Source: Podarcis liolepis
Taxonomy: Eukaryota
NCBI GenBank assembly: GCA_965112155.1
Contig: OZ218099.1
Direction: 5' to 3' (one strand)
Length of the DNA stretch: 64,000 nucleotides
Position numbers and translations under genes: made by a program. The notes below the pieces were generated by a model. It was not told where the DNA came from. It was given only the letters and a program-made list of their open reading frames with translations, and searched no databases. Shown here one piece after another: positions 3,988-64,000 of this stretch (position 1 is the stretch's first letter; every line of letters starts with the position of its first letter).

Positions 3988-4227
<240 letters not shown>

Positions 4228-11043: not shown

Positions 11044-11337
<294 letters not shown>

Positions 11338-49700: not shown

Positions 49701-50479
49701 GCCTCTACCGTCCCTTCTGTGTGGAGACAAAGGAAGATGTATCTTCTCATATATCTGCTATCCATTTTGTTTGTAATTTCTCATACTACAAATCATTCCT
49801 CCACCACCCCACATCTGTTGCCTCATTAATTGGGGGGGAGGGGTGCCACCTTTTAAACCAATTGATCTACAAAAGTTAATCCGCAGGGAGTGCAATCTTA
49901 TATCCCCTCAGAAGGAAGTCTGATTGAGTTAAATGGGACTTACTTCCAAGTAAGTGGGTGCAGCCTAAATGCAGACCTCGTAATTACAGCATGGAAGCAA
50001 AGTTGTGTGTGGAATGCAACCAATCAGCCTTCTTTCAGGGGAAGAGAGAAGTGCATAACCCCAATCCAGATTTCCCAAAAAATAATAATCATTTGATGCT
50101 GGTTTCCTTGAGAACTGAGTAACTATTTGGTGCCCTCTAGGCTAGGGTAACAATGTATTAGTCAACTCCCAAATGTAACCATGGAAATGATATCTCATGT
50201 ATACAGTAGAACGCAGAGGACCTCTACATTTGAGGAAGCATGGAAGTTTGGAAATCACCAATGCTCATACTGGCATCTTACACCACTTTAAACATTTAGT
50301 TGGGTTTCCTGATGTTTATATATGCCTGATACTGCACCCTTGATGTTATTACATCAGTTACCAGGTGTTTATACATCCATAGAGGACATCCATGCTACAC
50401 AGTTGCTGCAGAAAATGCTGGTGTACCTAACACTGGTGTTTCTGACAACACTGAAACTTGTTTTTAGATCTTTGGAATT

Positions 50480-50487
50480 TAATAATA

Positions 50488-50527
<40 letters not shown>

Positions 50528-50568
50528 TCTTTATTGTCATTGCCCCCTCTCGGGGACAACGAAATTAC
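50480..50568 (-). repeat. (AAT)n microsatellite with adjacent possible Rex1/Babar-like 3' terminus
   Basis: (AAT)n visible at 50480-50528. Minus strand reads aatttcgttgtccccgagagggggcaatgacaataaag then (ATT)n, like a LINE 3' stem-loop and tail. Confidence 0.5.
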
Positions 50569-50915
50569 TTCCCAATTTAGTAGGTTTTCTGGGTCACTTG
50601 AGACTTAGGCAGCATACACACCATAGATTTAAAAGAATCCTAAGAATCTTGGGAACTGCAGTTTGTTAAGGATGCTGCGAATTATAGCTTTGTGAGGGCA
50701 AAACCATTATTATTTTGTGCGTGTGCTGTATATACAGCCTTACACCCAAAGATTTACAGGACTCATATGTCTGGTGTCAGAGTGAGAAGTGATCCCACAC
50801 CTCTCCTTTAGCTGATCCGATTGTGGGGGGGCAAGGATAGACTCTTCTGCAGCATAAAAATAGATGAAGTGCATCACCCCCTGCACCTGATCCAAATTTG
50901 CATAAAATTCAAATA

Positions 50916-51137
50916 CAGTGGAACCTCGGGTTAAGTACTTAATTCCTGAGGTTCGTTCTTAACCTGAAACTGTTCTTAACCTGAAGCACCACTTTAGCTA
51001 ATGGGGCCTCCTGCTGCTGCCACGTCGCTGGAGCACGATTTCTGTTCTCATCCTGAAGCCAAGTTCTTAACCCGAGGTACTATTTCTGGGTTAGCGGAGT
51101 CTGTAACCTGCAGCGTATGTAACCCAAAGTACCACTG
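50916..51137. mobile_element. Tc1/mariner MITE family B (inverted relative to 26294)
   Basis: TIR cagtggaacctcgggtta / taacccaaagtaccactg with TA flanks. Confidence 0.9.
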
Positions 51138-54100
51138 TATGGTAATTTAAAAAACAAACAAACTTTCCTTTAAACAGAAATACAACTTACCACAGAGGAA
51201 GACTGTGAACCAGGTGATTTGTTTGTGTCTGCTGTTCAGTCTACAGGCAACCCCCCTCAAGTCACTTCCTTTGCTCACACCTTATACAGACCAAACTAGT
51301 ACACGCCGCACAGCTGGAAGGGGGAAGAGAAGTCCCATTCCCCAAAAGGTCTCTTCTTCTAGAAAAGCCTCAAAACTGTTTGTTTGAATGTTGTGGTTGT
51401 TTCCAGTTGTGATTACTTAATACAAATTAAAATCATCATCATCTCCAACGATTAGCTTCTATGGCAGATGATGTGTTTGGCAGGTTTGACCCTTCAAGCA
51501 GTCATTTCAGACTCCAGCACAGAACCACTTAGCTGGAGGAGGCCTTGATGTTATCCAGCTCAGCCCCACAGCATTTTACAAAATATACTTTGCTCCCTCT
51601 CCAGATCCTCTAAAATGAGAAATCTCCTAAGTGACAAGTGGATGCAAGCTTGTATTGAGTGCAGATGTATGTAATTACTACATTAAGATCCCACTTTTCT
51701 TCCAAGGAGCTCAAGGATGTGTATGTTGTTCTCCCCCTCTTCATATTATCCTCACAGCCACTGAGAGGCAGTGACTGGCCCAAGATCACCCAGTGAGCTT
51801 CGCTGCCAAGGTCCTAGTCCATGCTGGCTCTCGAAAGTTTCCTAAGGCTACTCAAGTCCTATTAGTGCTCAGCTATGCAACTGAATGGGGATTTGAACTT
51901 GGGCTCCAGCGTCAAAGCCCAACGCTCAAACCACTACACCACACACATTAATGTGTGTATATACTGGCAATCAATACTAGACTTGTCTGCTCAGAATACA
52001 TGTCTAGTATCTGCTCAGAAGTTACTCCCATTGCATCCAATCCTGTTTACTCCCCAGCAAGCATGCGTCGGATTTTACCTTCAGGTCACAATCAAACAGC
52101 TCAGCTTCGCGCTGCCAGCACGCAAAGCAGCGAAAAGCCAGACACACAGGAGAAGAGGCCAAAAGTCGCCAAACGGCTTTGCAACATTAAGCCGCAGCAG
52201 CATGGGAACCATGCACAGCCTCTGCCACTCCCGCTATGACCAGTCGTATGCAGCAGCCACCAGCAAGGAGCCACTAGCAGCAGTGGCAGCAGCAACCAAG
52301 TCATGCATTTAATTGGTGTCTATTGGATTTCCCCCCCTGAAGCTATACTTTGTGCTACTCACTCTGACATGGAAGGCAGAAGTTTCATTTTGTATCTGCA
52401 TCTGACTCAGAGACTTTTTTCTATACTGGCATTTGGCCTCCTGCCCTGACGGCAGTTTTTCTTGTATCATCAGGCTGAAATGTAGAATTTCCCACTGAGG
52501 AGATAGAGGAATGTGTGTGTGTGTGTAAAAGCAGGGTGAGGGAGGAAGAGACATTGATGAATGGAATAAATCCCTGCCACTCTTCTAGTTTCTTCTCAAA
52601 AACACAGCGGCAAGGTCTTTCTTTATCCTGTCACATAAAGATGCCACTGTCTCCCTAGAGAATAGCTCTTGAGAGACAGCAGCTTCTTTACGATCAGCAA
52701 ACCTACAGCTGTAACAATTGTAGAGCCATGGGGATAGTATAGGAGCACTATACTCCATCCAAATGGACTTTCTCCTCTGGAGAGCCTCTGGTAAGGGAAC
52801 CCTATTCTGCAACTTGAGTTTTAAGTAAGAAACCCAGCTGTAGATGGCACCGGCTGGCTAGTACCTGTGACATCATCAATACACCTCCCATTAAAAACCC
52901 CCAAAGATGCACCCACTTAAAAAAAAAAAGCCAATAGCACAGGTGAAATGAAAGGAGTGCAGAAAATACTGATGGCTGAATCAGCATTCAGTTTGTGGGA
53001 AGCTAGCTACATAACCGCACTGGACTTCTCACATCTGATATTAACCTAAACAGAAGACTTTTGTTAATTTTTATAGTTATGCTACATGCTGAACAGATTC
53101 ATCTATGCTTACATAGAGGGTTGGATTCTATTAGGTTGGAATATTGTTTTCATAACTTGCCAAGTAACTTTTATTTTATTAATACCCGATCTCAGCTCCT
53201 AATGTGTCGTGTCCACCACCTCAGGCTAGGACACCTCAGGGAAAACGTATGTACAAAATCTACTGTGAAATATGGATGTCAGTGTGGCATTTGCTTTCTT
53301 CCATCTTTATTGTTTCTCCCCCTGCAAATAATTCCCCCCACTGGCCTTTTCAACTACCAATTCATAATTAACGTAAGCCAGCAAAATACAAGTGGCCTCT
53401 TTCTAACAGTCAAGCTACAGTCCATTCTCTTCTCTCACTTCCACCTGCCCTCCATTACAGCCATTAACTGCTCTCTGCAGCTTATATGCCAACAAAGAAA
53501 AAGATGGCTTCACAGCTGTGACAGAATTCCATGTATGGGGGTGGCGAGGAAGGGGAGAAGCATCTTGGGACTCTAATCAAACCAGACAGATTGAGGTCAA
53601 ATGCTTCTTGCATTCAACAAGCATAAAGGGGGAAGAGAAAGGAAAAGCCACAGAAATAAGAGGTGGCAAGTGCCTACAGGGTGCCTCACATTCTGCTGTA
53701 GGGCAGCCACTGCCAACCTGGTATTGTTTAGACATTTGGGCTACAACACCTACCAGCCCCAGCCAGCATAAACTCTGGAGGTCAACGCGCTGTCCGTGGC
53801 TGCTACCCCAAAGCAGCTGAGAGTTGGAAATGGCTCTGAGGACCAATGCATGTAGGATATTTGAAAGTGTCTGCAAGTGTATGCTTTAGGTGGCTTGCTT
53901 TTTCTTGCCTCCCAGATCCCTCTCCTTATTTCTCCCCAAAACACAAGCCAAGGAATTCATGGGCCCATACACACCATACATTTTAAGCATCACCACAGTA
54001 CTTTAAATAGTCATGGCTTTCTCCCAAAGAATCCTAAGCAGTGTCGCTTGAGTTGTTAAGATCCCTGTTCTCCCTCACAGAGTGCCAGTTCTCAAAGTTC

Positions 54101-54224
54101 CCCTGGAAGAGGGACTGAGAGTGGAACTGAACAAGCCTGGAGATTGAGAGCAGAGACAGTAAAGGAATTTGTACCCAGGGTTCACAGTTTAAAGAGGAGG
54201 CAAGGAAGAGATGACACAAAAGAG

Positions 54225-54780
54225 GTGTGGAGAAAGTGGACAGAGTTTTACTCCTCCTCTCGCAACACCAGAACTGGGGACATCCAATGAAGCTGGTTGG
54301 TGGAAGATTCAGGACCAGACAAAAGAAAGGACCCCTTTGACGCAGCGCACACTTAAAATGCAGAACTCACTCCCACAGGACACAGTGATGGCCACCAACT
54401 TAGATGGCTTTAAAACAGGATTAAGCAAATTCATGACGAATAAGGCTATCAAGGTTATCTGAAGAAGTGTGCACGCACATGAAAGTTCATACCAATAACT
54501 TAGTTGGTCTCTAAGGTGCTAGTGGAAGAGATTTTTTTTATTTATTTTTTTACTACAGCAGACCTACCTGTCTCTAAGGCTATCAACGGCTACTAGCCAT
54601 GCCGGCTAAGCTCTGCCTCCACAACTGGATGCAGTATGCGTCTGAATACCAGTTGCTGGAAACAAAAGGAGGGATAATGACCTGATGCTCAGGCCCTGCC
54701 TTTGGGCTTCCCATAGGCATATTACTGCCTCCCCCCCCCCCCCAATGAGAACAAAGTGCTGGACAGGATGTGCTTTCGAT
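54225..54780 (+). mobile_element. CR1 3' fragment interrupted by a Penelope pLTR
   Basis: cagaactcactcccacaggacacagtgatggccaccaacttagatggctttaaa...taaggctatcaacggctactagccatg. Confidence 0.75.
54453..54574 (+). mobile_element. Solo Penelope pLTR fragment with degenerate hammerhead motif
   Basis: ttatCTGAAGAagtgtgcacgcacatGAAAgtTCatac at 54455-54492; 12-bp TSD taaggctatcaa (54441-54452, 54575-54586). Confidence 0.82.
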
Positions 54781-54825
54781 GTTCTTTCCTAAGCATCTAC
54801 AGTGGGAGACACAATTATTGACTGG

Positions 54826-55015
54826 AGGAGGAGAAGAAGAGGAGGAGTTTGGATTTGATATCCCGCTTTATCACTACCCTAAGGAGTCTCAAAGCGGCTA
54901 ACATTCTCCTTTCCCTTCCTCCCCCACCCAGCAGCTGCATGTGGAGAAGCGGAGATGCGAACCCGGTTCACCAGATTACGAGACTACCACTCTTAACCAC
55001 TACACCACACTGGCT
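54826..55015 (-). mobile_element. tRNA-derived SINE (Squam3-like), internally deleted
   Basis: Minus strand: agccagtgtggtgtagtggttaagagtgg (A box), gggttcgcatc (B box), (CTC/CTT)n tail. Confidence 0.75.
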
Positions 55016-55300
55016 GTAGATGGGTGGAGGTGTATTTTATTCATATGCTGAACTGCCCTTTGACCAAATATTGCCAGAAAATAAAACACAACAACAACAA
55101 CAACCCACTATATTTATACATACATACACACAAAGTCCTGAGTATTTTCACGTCTTGGGAAAATCCCCCAAAAAACTTGCTCACACCAGACAGATATTAA
55201 TTTAAAATGGCACCTTTGTTGTGGAAACACTGGCAAATTTGTCATTCTGGCTCCCTATGTGAATGACTAGTAGGTATGTAAATAAGCCACTCAGCTTCCT

Positions 55301-55312
55301 TTTATTTTTATT
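55301..55312 (-). terminator. Candidate poly(A) signals of the clathrin-like gene
   Basis: Two adjacent AATAAA on the minus strand about 520 nt past the stop; another at 55036-55041. Confidence 0.35.
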
Positions 55313-55830
55313 TTTTTTCAAAGCAATGGTAAGTCAGCAGGTCATGACCTAGAAGGTGGGAAAGGCAGAGCTGTGGATAGAAGCTCTTGCCTCCGCTGCA
55401 CCAATGACCCAGTGTTCCTTGGAGACAAGGCACACAGCTGCCACAAGATCAGCACCCCTTTCAAAAGGGAAGCAAGCCAGACAATATAGCAGGCAGAGAC
55501 CACCACCAGACACATATATAGTCAATGCCAATGCCCCCTGCAGCATAAATAACACCCTCTTTGCTCCTCATAAAAAAATCTCCAATATACCCAAAACATC
55601 ACATTCACGTTCATAGTTCTAAGAGTCATCTTTCCCCACAAAAATTATCAATTCTTTCTTCTCTGCTTCCATAGCAGCTCAGCAGGCATCCACATTACTG
55701 CTATGGACATCACCCTGTTCCTATGCTTTCAATTTGCCTTTCCCAAAGCCCCCATAAGATCCACCTAGGAATGAAAACAGTTTTGAGGCACTTGCAAGCG
55801 TTCCATCTCAGTATTTTGGGTGAGGAGAAG

Positions 55831-55968
55831 TCACTCCACAGAAATGGCTTTCCGTGGAGCAGGAATCTGGCCCACCAGTTGTAGCACCCGCTGGGAAAGG
55901 CAGAGGCTGGTAGGATGGTGGGAGATATATTGACACAGAGCATATGGACAGATAGAGATAGACAGCAC
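55831..55968 (-). CDS. Clathrin terminal-domain-like gene, coding exon 8 with stop codon
   Basis: tttgctgctcccccag| VLSISICPYALCQYISHHPTSLCLSQRVLQLVGQIPAPRKAISVE then TGA. Compare CLTC [29 protein letters not shown]. Confidence 0.82.
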   Translation of the reverse strand: MLSISICPYALCQYISHHPTSLCLSQRVLQLVGQIPAPRKAISVE

Positions 55969-56091: not shown

Positions 56092-56268
56092 CTTGCCACT
56101 ACGGCAAACTCCCAGCAGGCTGTGGGGCTTCTCATCATCAAGTACAGTAGCGAAAAGGATATCTAAGACCAGGTGGATGCGATGGATGGTTTGTGCCGTC
56201 TCCACGTCAGCAAGGAAGAGAAAAGCATGCTTGGTAAGAATGACCACCACACCCAAGTGGGGCAGGAA
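56092..56268 (-). CDS. Clathrin terminal-domain-like gene, coding exon 7 (177 nt)
   Basis: ttctatccttttag| FLPHLGVVVILTKHAFLFLADVETAQTIHRIHLVLDILFATVLDDEKPHSLLGVCRSGK |gtgagt. Compare CLTC [41 protein letters not shown]...GIIGVNRKGQ. Confidence 0.92.
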
Positions 56269-57072: not shown

Positions 57073-57186
57073 CTGTACTGCACTGGGGAAGTCCCCTAAC
57101 TGAGTCCCCTTGAAAGGCAAGGTGTCGCGGGCACTAAGCAAGGCGGCGTTCCCTGGCTGATGTGGGCCTAGCTCTACCACATGAAA
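57073..57186 (-). CDS. Clathrin terminal-domain-like gene, coding exon 6 (114 nt)
   Basis: tttgtgtctgcag| FHVVELGPHQPGNAALLSARDTLPFKGTQLGDFPSAVQ |gtgagt. Same 38-codon length as CLTC [38 protein letters not shown]. Confidence 0.92.
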
Positions 57187-57298: not shown

Positions 57299-57463
57299 CT
57301 GTCCAGCCTGTTCCTTGCCTCTCCGCACAGCAGCTAAGAGGGATGTTGAAGGTTTTGGATTCCTGGAAAATCTGTGCTGAGGCAAGGCTACTGCTTGGGC
57401 TTCTATGACCTGAGACAGTGGGCCCCCTCGCCAATACAGCTGGGTCAGGCCCACAACTTGGCT
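57299..57463 (-). CDS. Clathrin terminal-domain-like gene, coding exon 5 (165 nt)
   Basis: tttccttctcacag| SQVVGLTQLYWRGGPLSQVIEAQAVALPQHRFSRNPKPSTSLLAAVRRGKEQAGQ |gtgact. Compare CLTC [54 protein letters not shown]. Confidence 0.9.
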
Positions 57464-57648: not shown

Positions 57649-58097
57649 GACTGGTACCCTCAGGTTACAGACGCTTCAGGTTGCATACGCTTCAGGTTAC
57701 AGACTCCGCTAACCCAGAAATAGTGTCAGTTACAGATAGGTAGCCGTGTTGGTCTGCCATAGTCAAAATAAAAAAATTCCTTCCAGTAGCACCTTAAAGA
57801 CCAACTAAGTTAGTTCTTGGTATGAGCTTTCGTGTGAAGAAGTGTGCATGCACACGAAAGCTCATACCAAGAACTAACTTAGTTGGTCTTTAAGGTGCTA
57901 CTGGAAGGAATTTTTTTATCCAGAAATAGTGCTTCAGGTTAAGAACTTTGCTTCAGGATGAGAACAGAAATCGTGCTCCGGCGGCGCGGCAGCAGCAGGA
58001 GGCCCCATTAGTGAAAGTGGTGCTTCAGGTTAAGAACAGTTTCAGGTTAAGTACGGACCTCCGGAACGAATTAAGTACTTAACCTGAAGTACCACTG
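57649..58097. mobile_element. Tc1/mariner MITE family B split by a Penelope insertion
   Basis: Colinear with 26294-26535 once 57726-57919 and one TSD copy are removed; TA flanks. Confidence 0.88.
57726..57919. mobile_element. Penelope pLTR inverted-duplication insertion
   Basis: 12-bp TSD ccagaaatagtg (57714-57725, 57920-57931); perfect 69-bp inverted arms 57768-57836 and 57851-57919. Confidence 0.9.
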
Positions 58098-58349
58098 TAA
58101 TGAGTTTAGAAACAAGAGACTTAACTTTTAACATTTTTTTTTTTAATGGATAAGCTGAAAGAAAAAGGGATTGACAATGAAAACCAGAGAAGGGTGGTGG
58201 GAAGTCAGGGGATTCTGAGAATCCTAAATGTGAAGGTGAATGATATGTTTAAATTGAAATGTGTTATGTAAAACTTAATTAAAATATTTTAAAAATATAA
58301 AATAGAAACAGAAGACATATCACAGCCATGGGGTCAGAGAATTATGTAC

Positions 58350-58468
58350 CTGCTCAAGTCCTAGAGCAGAGAGAGCCATCCACATATGACTGGCATCCCG
58401 TTGATATCCTACCACCTCCATGCCACAGAGACGTTCATGTCGGCTAAACTGCCAACTTGGTCCGGAAC
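58350..58468 (-). CDS. Clathrin terminal-domain-like gene, coding exon 4 (119 nt)
   Basis: tctcccttcaag| (R)SGPSWQFSRHERLCGMEVVGYQRDASHMWMALSALGLEQ |gtacat. Compare CLTC [38 protein letters not shown]. Confidence 0.9.
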
Positions 58469-59364: not shown

Positions 59365-59514
59365 GTTTTACGGTCCAGTGGAAGACATCCTCCTCTGTCA
59401 CCACAGCCAGAATGTCAGCGTTCAACCACACCCAGTACTCAATAGGATGAGCAAATTCCCACTGGTATCTTAAGGAACGCTGGTCCACGTCGTAGACCTG
59501 GGCCAGCTGCCCCG
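59365..59514 (-). CDS. Clathrin terminal-domain-like gene, coding exon 3 (150 nt)
   Basis: cctcttccttctag| (A)GQLAQVYDVDQRSLRYQWEFAHPIEYWVWLNADILAVVTEEDVFHWTVK |gtgagt. Ungapped match to CLTC [50 protein letters not shown]. Confidence 0.92.
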
Positions 59515-60472: not shown

Positions 60473-60704
60473 CTCTGACAGCAAGCAGTGGACGGCTAGG
60501 ATTAGCCAGAGCCCCTTGCACATGATGCAAAGTCCAGTTTGGCGGAGCCTGATCCTCATTGGGAGATGCACGGGGATCCAAGAGCGTCAGCGATTGCCGG
60601 GAGGAGTCCCCAGGAGGGCTGTGCCGGACACAGAGGCGAGAGGCAGACGAGAAGGTTACACGAGGGTAGGTGATGTATTCCGATACAATGCCATGGGCTT
60701 GGAG
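60473..60704 (-). CDS. Clathrin terminal-domain-like gene, coding exon 2 (232 nt)
   Basis: cccattctctgcag| LQAHGIVSEYITYPRVTFSSASRLCVRH...VQGALANPSRPLLAVR +1 nt |gtacag. Compare CLTC [28 protein letters not shown]...ADSAIMNPASKVIALK (also phase 1). Confidence 0.88.
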
Positions 60705-62549: not shown

Positions 62550-63520
62550 AATGGCTTCCACCGGAACCCCGCAAATCTTCTATCCACACAACCACCTCGC
62601 CCCTTTCACACTCTCTGGGGCTGCATAGCGCCGCAACCACCCCTGAGCTCGACCCATTCCAAATCGCGCACCCGCCCCGGCCCGTCACCACCTCTCGAGT
62701 AACTATTTTCCCACAGAGGCCTATAGGTTGAGCTACGTGGGTTTTTTTTGGGGGGGGGTGTTTCCTGCTTACCTGAGTCAAAACTTCCACGCGGACTGGA
62801 GACACAGGCTCGCTCATAGCTTGGTATTCCGAATCAACCTGCAGTGCAGAGAAAAATAGGAGCAAATGGTGCGCGGGAGAGAAAAGGGGGACACGTGGGG
62901 AGAGGGGCGGCTTTGGGGAAGGTTTATGGAGTCGGGAGTGACGACCCAGGCTAGCAAGTAAATTATAACAGGAGTTAACAGTAAGAGGCTCACCCCGAGG
63001 AAAAACTGTAACTAAATCCATGAAAACAACTGCACCACATAGTTCAATATTTGAGCTTTTAAAAACTTACAGGGAAGCGCTCCGCGTAGCTGGCAGTCTT
63101 CCCCACCGCGGCTGCCCAAAGTTCCTACTCTTTCCTCCTCCTTTTTCCTCGGATTATAATGGCGTTTCAAGGCCATTCCTGCCCTCTTTCCCAGGTGTAC
63201 ATGATCTTGCTTTCAGACTCGATCCAATTAGCCCTAGCAAAAGGGAGGATCCCTCAGCCACATCTCTCTCTACTACTCCTACCGGTTCGACCAATCCCAG
63301 ACCAAGGGCCCCATGGAGAGCAGCCTGATGCGGACCCAGGAAAAAGGGGGAGGAAAGCAACCAACTCGCCCCACCCGGAGCAAGCGGACAGGAAGCCGTT
63401 GTGTATGAAAACCAACAGCCTAACGATCTGCTACGCGCAGAACACAGACCGTGGAGTTTGCACACCCGCTTTGGTATTTTGCACGAGAAAGCGGCATATA
63501 AATGCTTTTATAAATACAGT
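62550..63520 (-). promoter_or_regulatory. CpG-rich region, likely promoter and 5' end of the clathrin-like gene
   Basis: Visibly higher CpG density than the rest of the window and not an obvious repeat. Contains coding exon 1, an upstream CCT|gtaagt donor (63071/63070) and a minus-strand TATAAAAG at 63505-63512. Confidence 0.5.
62773..62817 (-). CDS. Clathrin heavy chain terminal-domain-like gene, coding exon 1 (whole exon 62773-62838)
   Basis: Acceptor tttttctctgcactgcag| at 62838; ATG at 62817 (G at -3); MSEPVSPVRVEVLTQ then |gtaagc. Compare CLTC MAQILPIRFQEHLQ|. Confidence 0.85.
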
Positions 63521-64000
63521 GCAATATATAACTCTTGGATGTTAAGCTTTAGAGGCATATCAGAAGGAGCTGTGGCTAGCAGAAGATCTGGGTTGCAGAC
63601 CAGAATCGGAATCAGGTTCGTTGCTTGGTTGTCTTCAGCCCAAGCTCCTGATAGTGCAGAGAACTGAAAATCCACACTGGCTCCTCCTAAGTTTATTTCG
63701 AAGCAAGTCCAATTAATTTCAGCGGTGCTCATTTCTCAAGGCCTTGTCCTCAAGAAAAGGTAGTAAATGTGACTCTGGGTGGTGCTGATACAGACGTGGA
63801 ATCACCCTACAAAAATTCTTTTTCCTGCCGAACCAACCCTGCACATCGCGAATGGGATGTCAGAGAGCAAAAACTTCTCGCCTTGGTGCGCCTGTTTTCT
63901 ATGGGGTTTGAGGGGGGAGGCGGGGAAGGGAAAGGACCTTTGCTTATGCTCAGAGTAGCATGCAATCAACGTGAGCCCCCGCTTTCAATTTGAACTCGAG

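Follow-up and report, generated by a model that had tools for sequence, protein, structure and literature searches.

The window analysed here, a stretch of 64,000 nt of Podarcis liolepis DNA, carries a gene that begins as a clathrin heavy chain and stops far before the legs, and the question that this locus raises is whether the gene is a remnant of a full-length clathrin or a gene in its own right and, in the latter case, what a clathrin of such a shape could do.

Gene structure and transcripts

Eight minus-strand exons from 62817 to 55831 give an intact 379-aa frame with GT-AG boundaries at seven of seven introns (Table 1). The stop is codon 380 of this eight-exon frame, and the TGA at 55833-55831 that the preliminary description had placed at the close of exon 8 was confirmed. 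Exon 8 encodes two predicted linker helices and then an 11-aa tail. The product differs at 2 of 379 residues (99.5% identity) from Podarcis muralis XP_028575043, annotated as 'clathrin heavy chain 2-like' and referred to below as P0018. An upstream exon, where it is used, corresponds to the N-terminal extension in annotated 430-aa isoforms. The phase-1 intron between exons 3 and 4 (59365/58468) is presumably absent from human CLTC, with which we take the other six positions to be common. On the opposite (+) strand, Plexin-A cytoplasmic exons lie at 65-277, 4017-4167 and 11243-11337, the former two matching Pfam PF08337; the last coding exons of this neighbour, which we take to be PLXNA1, face the short clathrin gene tail-to-tail across about 44 kb.

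Four of the 24 listed sequencing runs were examined, and X1 (from a related lizard) and X6 were taken as RNA on the basis of their spliced contigs. All seven exon joints are present in X1 contigs: a 1678-nt contig (depth 268) joins introns 3-7, passes the stop and ends at 55017, and two further contigs, of depth 110 and 137, span the joints of introns 2 and 1. X6 holds two of the joints at depth 2-5, and two raw RNA runs have a read depth below 0.3 across exons 7-8; expression is unequal between runs, with a contig depth of 268 in X1 and about 5 in X6. Among the coding differences listed between X1 and the window, five of eight are silent.

Splicing out of exon 8 at the GT at 55834, which overlaps the stop and had been pointed out as a possible route to further exons, is not seen in the main X1 contig, which reads through; this concerns the main joints listed, besides which there are 139 lesser joints that may include a minor splice. 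The AATAAA signals at 55301-55312 named in the preliminary description are present, but the X1 and X6 contigs run past them, and the pair lies within an A-rich run and makes up 2 of the 11 such hexamers in 50000-55900. The AATAAA close to the X1 contig end is the likely polyadenylation signal, and the end itself may also be explained as an assembly break because a repeat starts there. High-copy lizard repeats lie at 50914-51124, 54460-54543, 57679-58099 and 54830-55015 (very high depth, four of four runs). The alternative last exon starting at 54655 sits within a repeat-rich stretch, one high-copy repeat adjoining the transcript 3' end, and no leg sequence was found in this exon.

Table 1. Features of the short clathrin gene in the window; X1 and X6 are the sequencing runs described in the text.
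Feature	Positions	Strand	Basis
Optional upstream coding-capable exon	63598..63732	-	tblastn of P0002 N-terminus, 87% over 45 aa; X1 contig depth
Exon 1, coding part from ATG (aa 1-15)	62773..62817	-	frame; joint 60704/62773 in X1
Exon 2 (aa 16-92)	60473..60704	-	frame, propeller profile match, X1 contigs
Exon 3 (aa 93-142), with Q98/Y100 as clathrin-box Q89/F91 equivalents	59365..59514	-	frame, propeller profile match, X1 contigs
Exon 4 (aa 143-182), E160 for W-box Q152, W172 as arrestin-box W164	58350..58468	-	frame, X1 contigs
Exon 5 (aa 183-237), L191/Q200 as arrestin-box L183/Q192	57299..57463	-	frame, X1 contigs
Exon 6 (aa 238-275)	57073..57186	-	frame, X1 contigs
Exon 7 (aa 276-334), last propeller blade	56092..56268	-	frame, relatives, X1 contigs
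Exon 8, coding part (aa 335-379), 45 codons, TGA 55833-55831	55831..55968	-	frame, profile-profile homology, model
3' UTR to X1 contig end, 814 nt	55017..55830	-	X1 contig
Tandem AATAAA of the preliminary description	55301..55312	-	read through by X1 and X6 contigs
AATAAA, 19 nt before X1 contig end	55036..55041	-	hexamer position relative to contig end
Alternative last exon, 20 codons then stop	54593..54655	-	15/20 residues match P. muralis isoform X2 tail
Candidate alternative last exon, 3 codons then stop	49705..49716	-	pattern match only, P. muralis isoform X4

A clathrin propeller and the missing legs

P0018 aligns with clathrin residues 4-340 in phmmer (E 2e-44), and in profile-profile comparison the homology to canonical clathrin extends to residue 364 and so takes in the first 30 residues of exon 8, in agreement with the extent read previously from the sequence. 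The short protein is about 27-28% identical to clathrin. Single units give little: a Pfam search of seven exons one by one had no significant match, exon 8 alone had 0 matches among PDB sequences, and Pfam PF01394 is weak in the family (one of 14 members, at E 0.088), the horseshoe crab member reaching E 7e-11. The ESM Atlas yielded clathrin-propeller clusters only.

A first AlphaFold2 model of P0018 based on 14 lizard rows had a pLDDT of 35 and was discarded. With 97 rows, the pLDDT was 95, and the predicted structure is a propeller with helices at 342-351 and 356-368. Compared with clathrin 1-362, this model has a Z of 45.9 and an rmsd of 2.3 Å over 358 residues, the next WD40 proteins having a Z of 22; the prediction leans toward clathrin because the alignment held 49 canonical clathrin rows. 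Clathrin 1-363 is the construct in the binding work of PMC5182127, and the natural end of the short protein coincides with the boundary of this construct, which has also been crystallised.

An important check was whether the rest of a clathrin lies elsewhere in the window. A leg profile made from 34 long clathrins was run against the 2825 stop-to-stop frames of the window (best E 2.1) and leg regions were searched against it by tblastn (best E 0.066), and neither search found leg exons in these 64,000 nt. The propeller-region control with the same method recovered exons 2-7 (E 4e-14 to 0.008), and in a leave-one-out control of sensitivity 80 of 95 held-out 50-aa leg pieces were found at E<0.01. 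The earlier statement that no leg-repeat exons stand before plexin therefore holds for the window. The leg profile also matched none of the 31 family proteins tested.

The N-terminal seven-bladed clathrin propeller is present by homology and predicted fold; of the alpha-zigzag linker and CHCR leg repeats two helices only are there, and the C-terminal trimerisation domain and the length of about 1650 aa are absent. The early stop claimed in the preliminary description is thus real, but it falls after the two linker helices and not at the start of the linker. Coat assembly requires clathrin legs and the trimerisation domain. Because the short protein has neither, it is predicted to be unable to assemble coats, and the same expectation expressed earlier is supported by the absence of leg exons and the stop at codon 380.

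Relatives and age of the short proteins

On the basis of exon 7 and a lizard profile, orthologues were found in lacertids, anoles, agamids, geckos, a skink, a cordylid, a monitor, an amphisbaenian, turtles and caecilians, with an identity of about 80% among lizards, 60-67% to near-full-length turtle models and 49% to caecilians. Among 85 tetrapod-level proteins, which include isoforms and are not independent, 71 end 7-65 aa past the last-helix motif, in support of a conserved stop position, and the motif is absent in the other 14, which are alternative ends or disrupted models. Full-length orthologues, raised earlier as a sign against a legless protein, were not encountered: the longest of the 85 has 500 aa. 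Two kinds of turtle models deserve a comment. P0046 and P0068 of Mauremys mutica have an EF-hand N-terminal part fused to the family protein, and RefSeq models of the species lack this fusion, which is probably a neighbouring gene merged in. P0059, P0060, P0062 and P0081-P0084 of Dermochelys coriacea have internal deletions or miss the last-helix motif, which suggests a disrupted gene or assembly errors in the leatherback.

Scanning 1.84 billion representatives with a profile produced 736 matches, of which the best 150 were taken on. Ten family members were looked up and nine were named; named members are from lampreys, the hemichordate Glandiceps, horseshoe crabs, the snail Physella, the annelid Owenia, the brachiopod Lingula, the crinoid Antedon, the mite Oppia and the centipede Strigamia. 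The preliminary description, looking at a single gene, had missed this old family common to protostomes and deuterostomes. No snake, crocodilian, bird, mammal, frog or fish member was named in word-limited searches with a 50% library hiding close relatives; one of these searches missed a lamprey row present in its own query, and losses in those groups are not established. The Owenia fusiformis protein P0092 (1087 aa) has the family propeller and then about 690 residues with no Pfam match or leg similarity, which may be a real extension or a merged model. A mite-like subgroup is intronless; its member at a metagenome locus (L001, 764-1963, +) ends in a PDZ-ligand-like tripeptide. A viral origin of this subgroup was considered and rejected, as no relative of its protein P0148 was found in viral contigs and the metagenome locus is eukaryotic, a Gaa1 GPI-transamidase gene adjoining the intronless member 163 nt upstream.

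In a FastTree phylogeny of the 133 rows with enough coverage, 37 rows fall in one clade (0.994). With rows hand-picked from this tree, IQ-TREE separated 21 short proteins from 28 canonical rows at 100/100 and nested lamprey, caecilian, turtle and lizards as vertical descent predicts. The AU test rejects a tree in which the short proteins of vertebrates join P0100, a CLTC-like row (p 1.3e-5), and does not reject descent of the family as a whole from animal clathrin (p 0.30). The short family thus forms a clade apart from the canonical clathrins, its attachment point and deep internal branching being without firm placement. The truncation likely predates the protostome-deuterostome split, because the short proteins of both form one clade, and we infer a single duplication and truncation before that split. 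Four long-branched clathrin-propeller proteins of 400-670 aa (P0153, P0177, P0208, P0141) lie outside both the family and the main clathrins in a quick tree; these may be fragments or other shortened paralogues.

Comparison with known clathrin variants clarifies the position of the family. Like the N-terminal domain of CHC17 (CLTC residues 1-363; PDB 2xzg, 1bpo, 5m5r), the short protein has a predicted seven-bladed propeller with the first two linker helices and retains equivalents of Q89, W164, L183 and Q192; unlike CHC17, it has no remaining linker, CHCR legs, light-chain site or trimerisation domain, its W box, Royle box and part of its clathrin box are changed, and it forms a separate clade. 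CLHC1 (clathrin heavy chain linker domain containing 1) is a partial clathrin-derived gene with similarity to the linker rather than the propeller, and would in this differ from the short family. The paralogue CHC22 (CLTCL1) and the short splice form CHC17-SAS are likewise clathrins with a reduced C-terminus, but according to bioRxiv 10.64898/2026.08.20.745084 no more than about 40 residues are missing from their ends and they retain the trimerisation domain, which the short family lacks. CLTCL1 arose after the split from jawless fishes, the CLTC/CLTCL1 duplication being dated to jawed vertebrates in PMC6548504, whereas the short family is already found in both lampreys and invertebrate animals. 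A terminal domain without the hub is also present in engineered dominant-negative TD/TDD fragments and in frameshift-truncated CLTC alleles (PMC7480105), but these have the wild-type sequence and are artificial or pathological, while the short family is encoded by a conserved gene of its own, in which the sites are altered.

Adaptor sites and possible function

T87, I80 and a few other positions were included as clathrin site residues. The other site residues came from PMC5182127 and PMC11543927 and were mapped via P0100, whose numbering agrees with both. The four sites have changed to differing degrees. In the arrestin box, W164 and Q192, the latter of which hydrogen-bonds the peptide backbone (PMC5182127), are invariant in 18/18 vertebrate and 12/12 non-mite invertebrate rows, and L183 and I194 are kept in 18/18 vertebrate rows. 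The core formed by W164, L183 and Q192 thus appears retained, and peptide binding by it is a prediction; W164 and L183 may also be conserved for folding. The lizard keeps 7 of 16 arrestin-box cavity residues against a background identity of 28% (p 0.12), S185 has become W in 13/18 vertebrate rows (the amniotes), where it may fill the pocket, and only 4 of 16 mite-like rows keep Q192. In the clathrin box, the position of Q89 is Q in 16/18 vertebrates and that of F91 is Y or F in 18/18, Q98, Y100 and R105 of the lizard being kept or similar, and the basic rim, formed by K96, K98 and R64 in clathrin, has K98 replaced by L and R64 by W in 18/18 vertebrates. The W box has E for Q152 in 18/18 vertebrate and 10/14 invertebrate rows, with V or I at I154, and a canonical W box is predicted not to be retained. 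The same prediction is made for a canonical Royle box, in which F9, E11, N296 and R297 are V, V, I and H in the lizard; F9 is V or L in 18/18 vertebrates, although it is variable in canonical rows too (13/29). Clade-diagnostic conserved residues include H43, R155, P245 and R361, and F27 is Y or W in the short family.

The C-terminal tail differs among lineages. The pattern [ST]-x-[VIL] is that of class I PDZ ligands. Of the 13 named lineages, four have proteins with this ending (probability by chance 0.035 for each, p 8e-4, the motif having been picked post hoc), namely caecilian, lamprey, hemichordate and mite-like members, including 16/16 mite-like rows, and it is absent from the lizard and turtle proteins.

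Concerning function, we prefer, tentatively and at slightly less than an even chance, a soluble protein that would selectively bind short motifs rich in leucine, carried by a subset of trafficking proteins. The isolated peptide-binding propeller that the preliminary description had offered as one possibility fits well with the predicted fold and with the kept Q192 and Q89/F91-like anchors. Its other proposal was an adaptor decoy, in which an unattached terminal domain would rival clathrin in binding AP2 and accessory proteins and so damp endocytosis in the places where it is expressed. This proposal gains from the finding that clathrin-mediated endocytosis is inhibited via AP2 and SNX9 when the terminal domain is overexpressed, alone or together with the distal leg (PMC7480105), from the aforementioned anchors and from high expression in at least one sample (X1). 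However, W-box and clathrin-box peptides are the most active in that inhibition (PMC7480105), and just these surfaces carry Q152 to E, K98 to L and R64 to W, with F9 and E11 lost as well; a mimic ought to follow the original surfaces, but family-specific residues have been fixed instead, and only 28% identity with clathrin is left. A general decoy is therefore judged rather unlikely, and a selective adaptor is the likelier of the two because the arrestin-box core is invariant while the W, Royle and clathrin boxes have been remodelled. The preference is not free of counter-evidence: the count of cavity residues kept, the W at S185 and the loss of Q192 in mite-like rows all speak against a selective adaptor.

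The remodelling could also mean that the propeller was repurposed for non-adaptor partners through its changed top face or new surface residues, for example as a binder of scaffolds or receptor tails. The clade-diagnostic residues, the E so widely found at the W-box position and the PDZ-like tails in four lineages are in line with this reading, which we hold to be possible though somewhat unlikely, since the invariant Q192 and the kept Q89/F91-like pair favour binding of a peptide in the groove in the manner of clathrin. The clean break after two helices in all lineages and the conserved Arg R361 in the last helix would suit a split clathrin, in which the propeller docks on a separate linker or leg protein (e.g. 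CLHC1) or on canonical clathrin to make a variant coat; leg-coding sequence was not found in the window, however, and the literature naming CLHC1 offers, in its titles and the beginnings of its abstracts, no study of mechanism, and this arrangement seems quite improbable. It is scarcely credible that the gene is a full-length clathrin that decayed after duplication, was misassembled or was annotated only in part: the automatic names (clathrin heavy chain 1- or 2-like) and the disrupted-looking leatherback models may give this impression, but the frame is intact, the contigs are spliced, identity is about 80% across lizard families, and the same end point recurs in independent genomes from mite to lizard. 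A selective adaptor is accordingly preferred over all four of these explanations.

If a selective adaptor is assumed, an early animal clathrin gene would have been duplicated and one copy cut after the first two linker helices. This short copy would have retained mainly the groove between blades 4 and 5 (the arrestin box) and part of the clathrin box, its other adaptor sites being remodelled, and the protein might cap certain adaptors or cargo tails, or hand them on, in a small number of cell types, with no titration of all adaptors. In several lineages the PDZ-ligand-like tail could tether it to a membrane scaffold, and lizards and turtles, having no such tail, would do without this step.

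A survey of 62 species counted one clathrin heavy chain gene in the lamprey Petromyzon marinus (PMC6548504), and XP_032823741 (376 aa) of this species is a family member. In the open-access literature no description of the short family was found; its genes have been annotated automatically and apparently not recognised as a family. Animals thus likely carry an old, overlooked relative of clathrin. A bolder picture, which we regard as doubtful but worth stating, is an ancestral second clathrin of bilaterians, legless, with a motif specificity of its own and a tail for PDZ binding, which would link clathrin-box proteins to membrane scaffolds and gate endocytosis locally without a coat; it would survive in lizards, turtles, caecilians, lampreys and many invertebrates, and would have been overlooked because it was lost in the common model animals.

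The short family would add one more gene, likely an older one, to those derived from clathrin, so far concealed by automatic 'clathrin heavy chain-like' names, and it would represent a natural counterpart of the terminal-domain inhibitor of endocytosis, with four adaptor sites altered to differing degrees. Because the four sites have changed unequally, the family may permit a direct test of the role of each site, and of a built-in competitor or relay of the coat.
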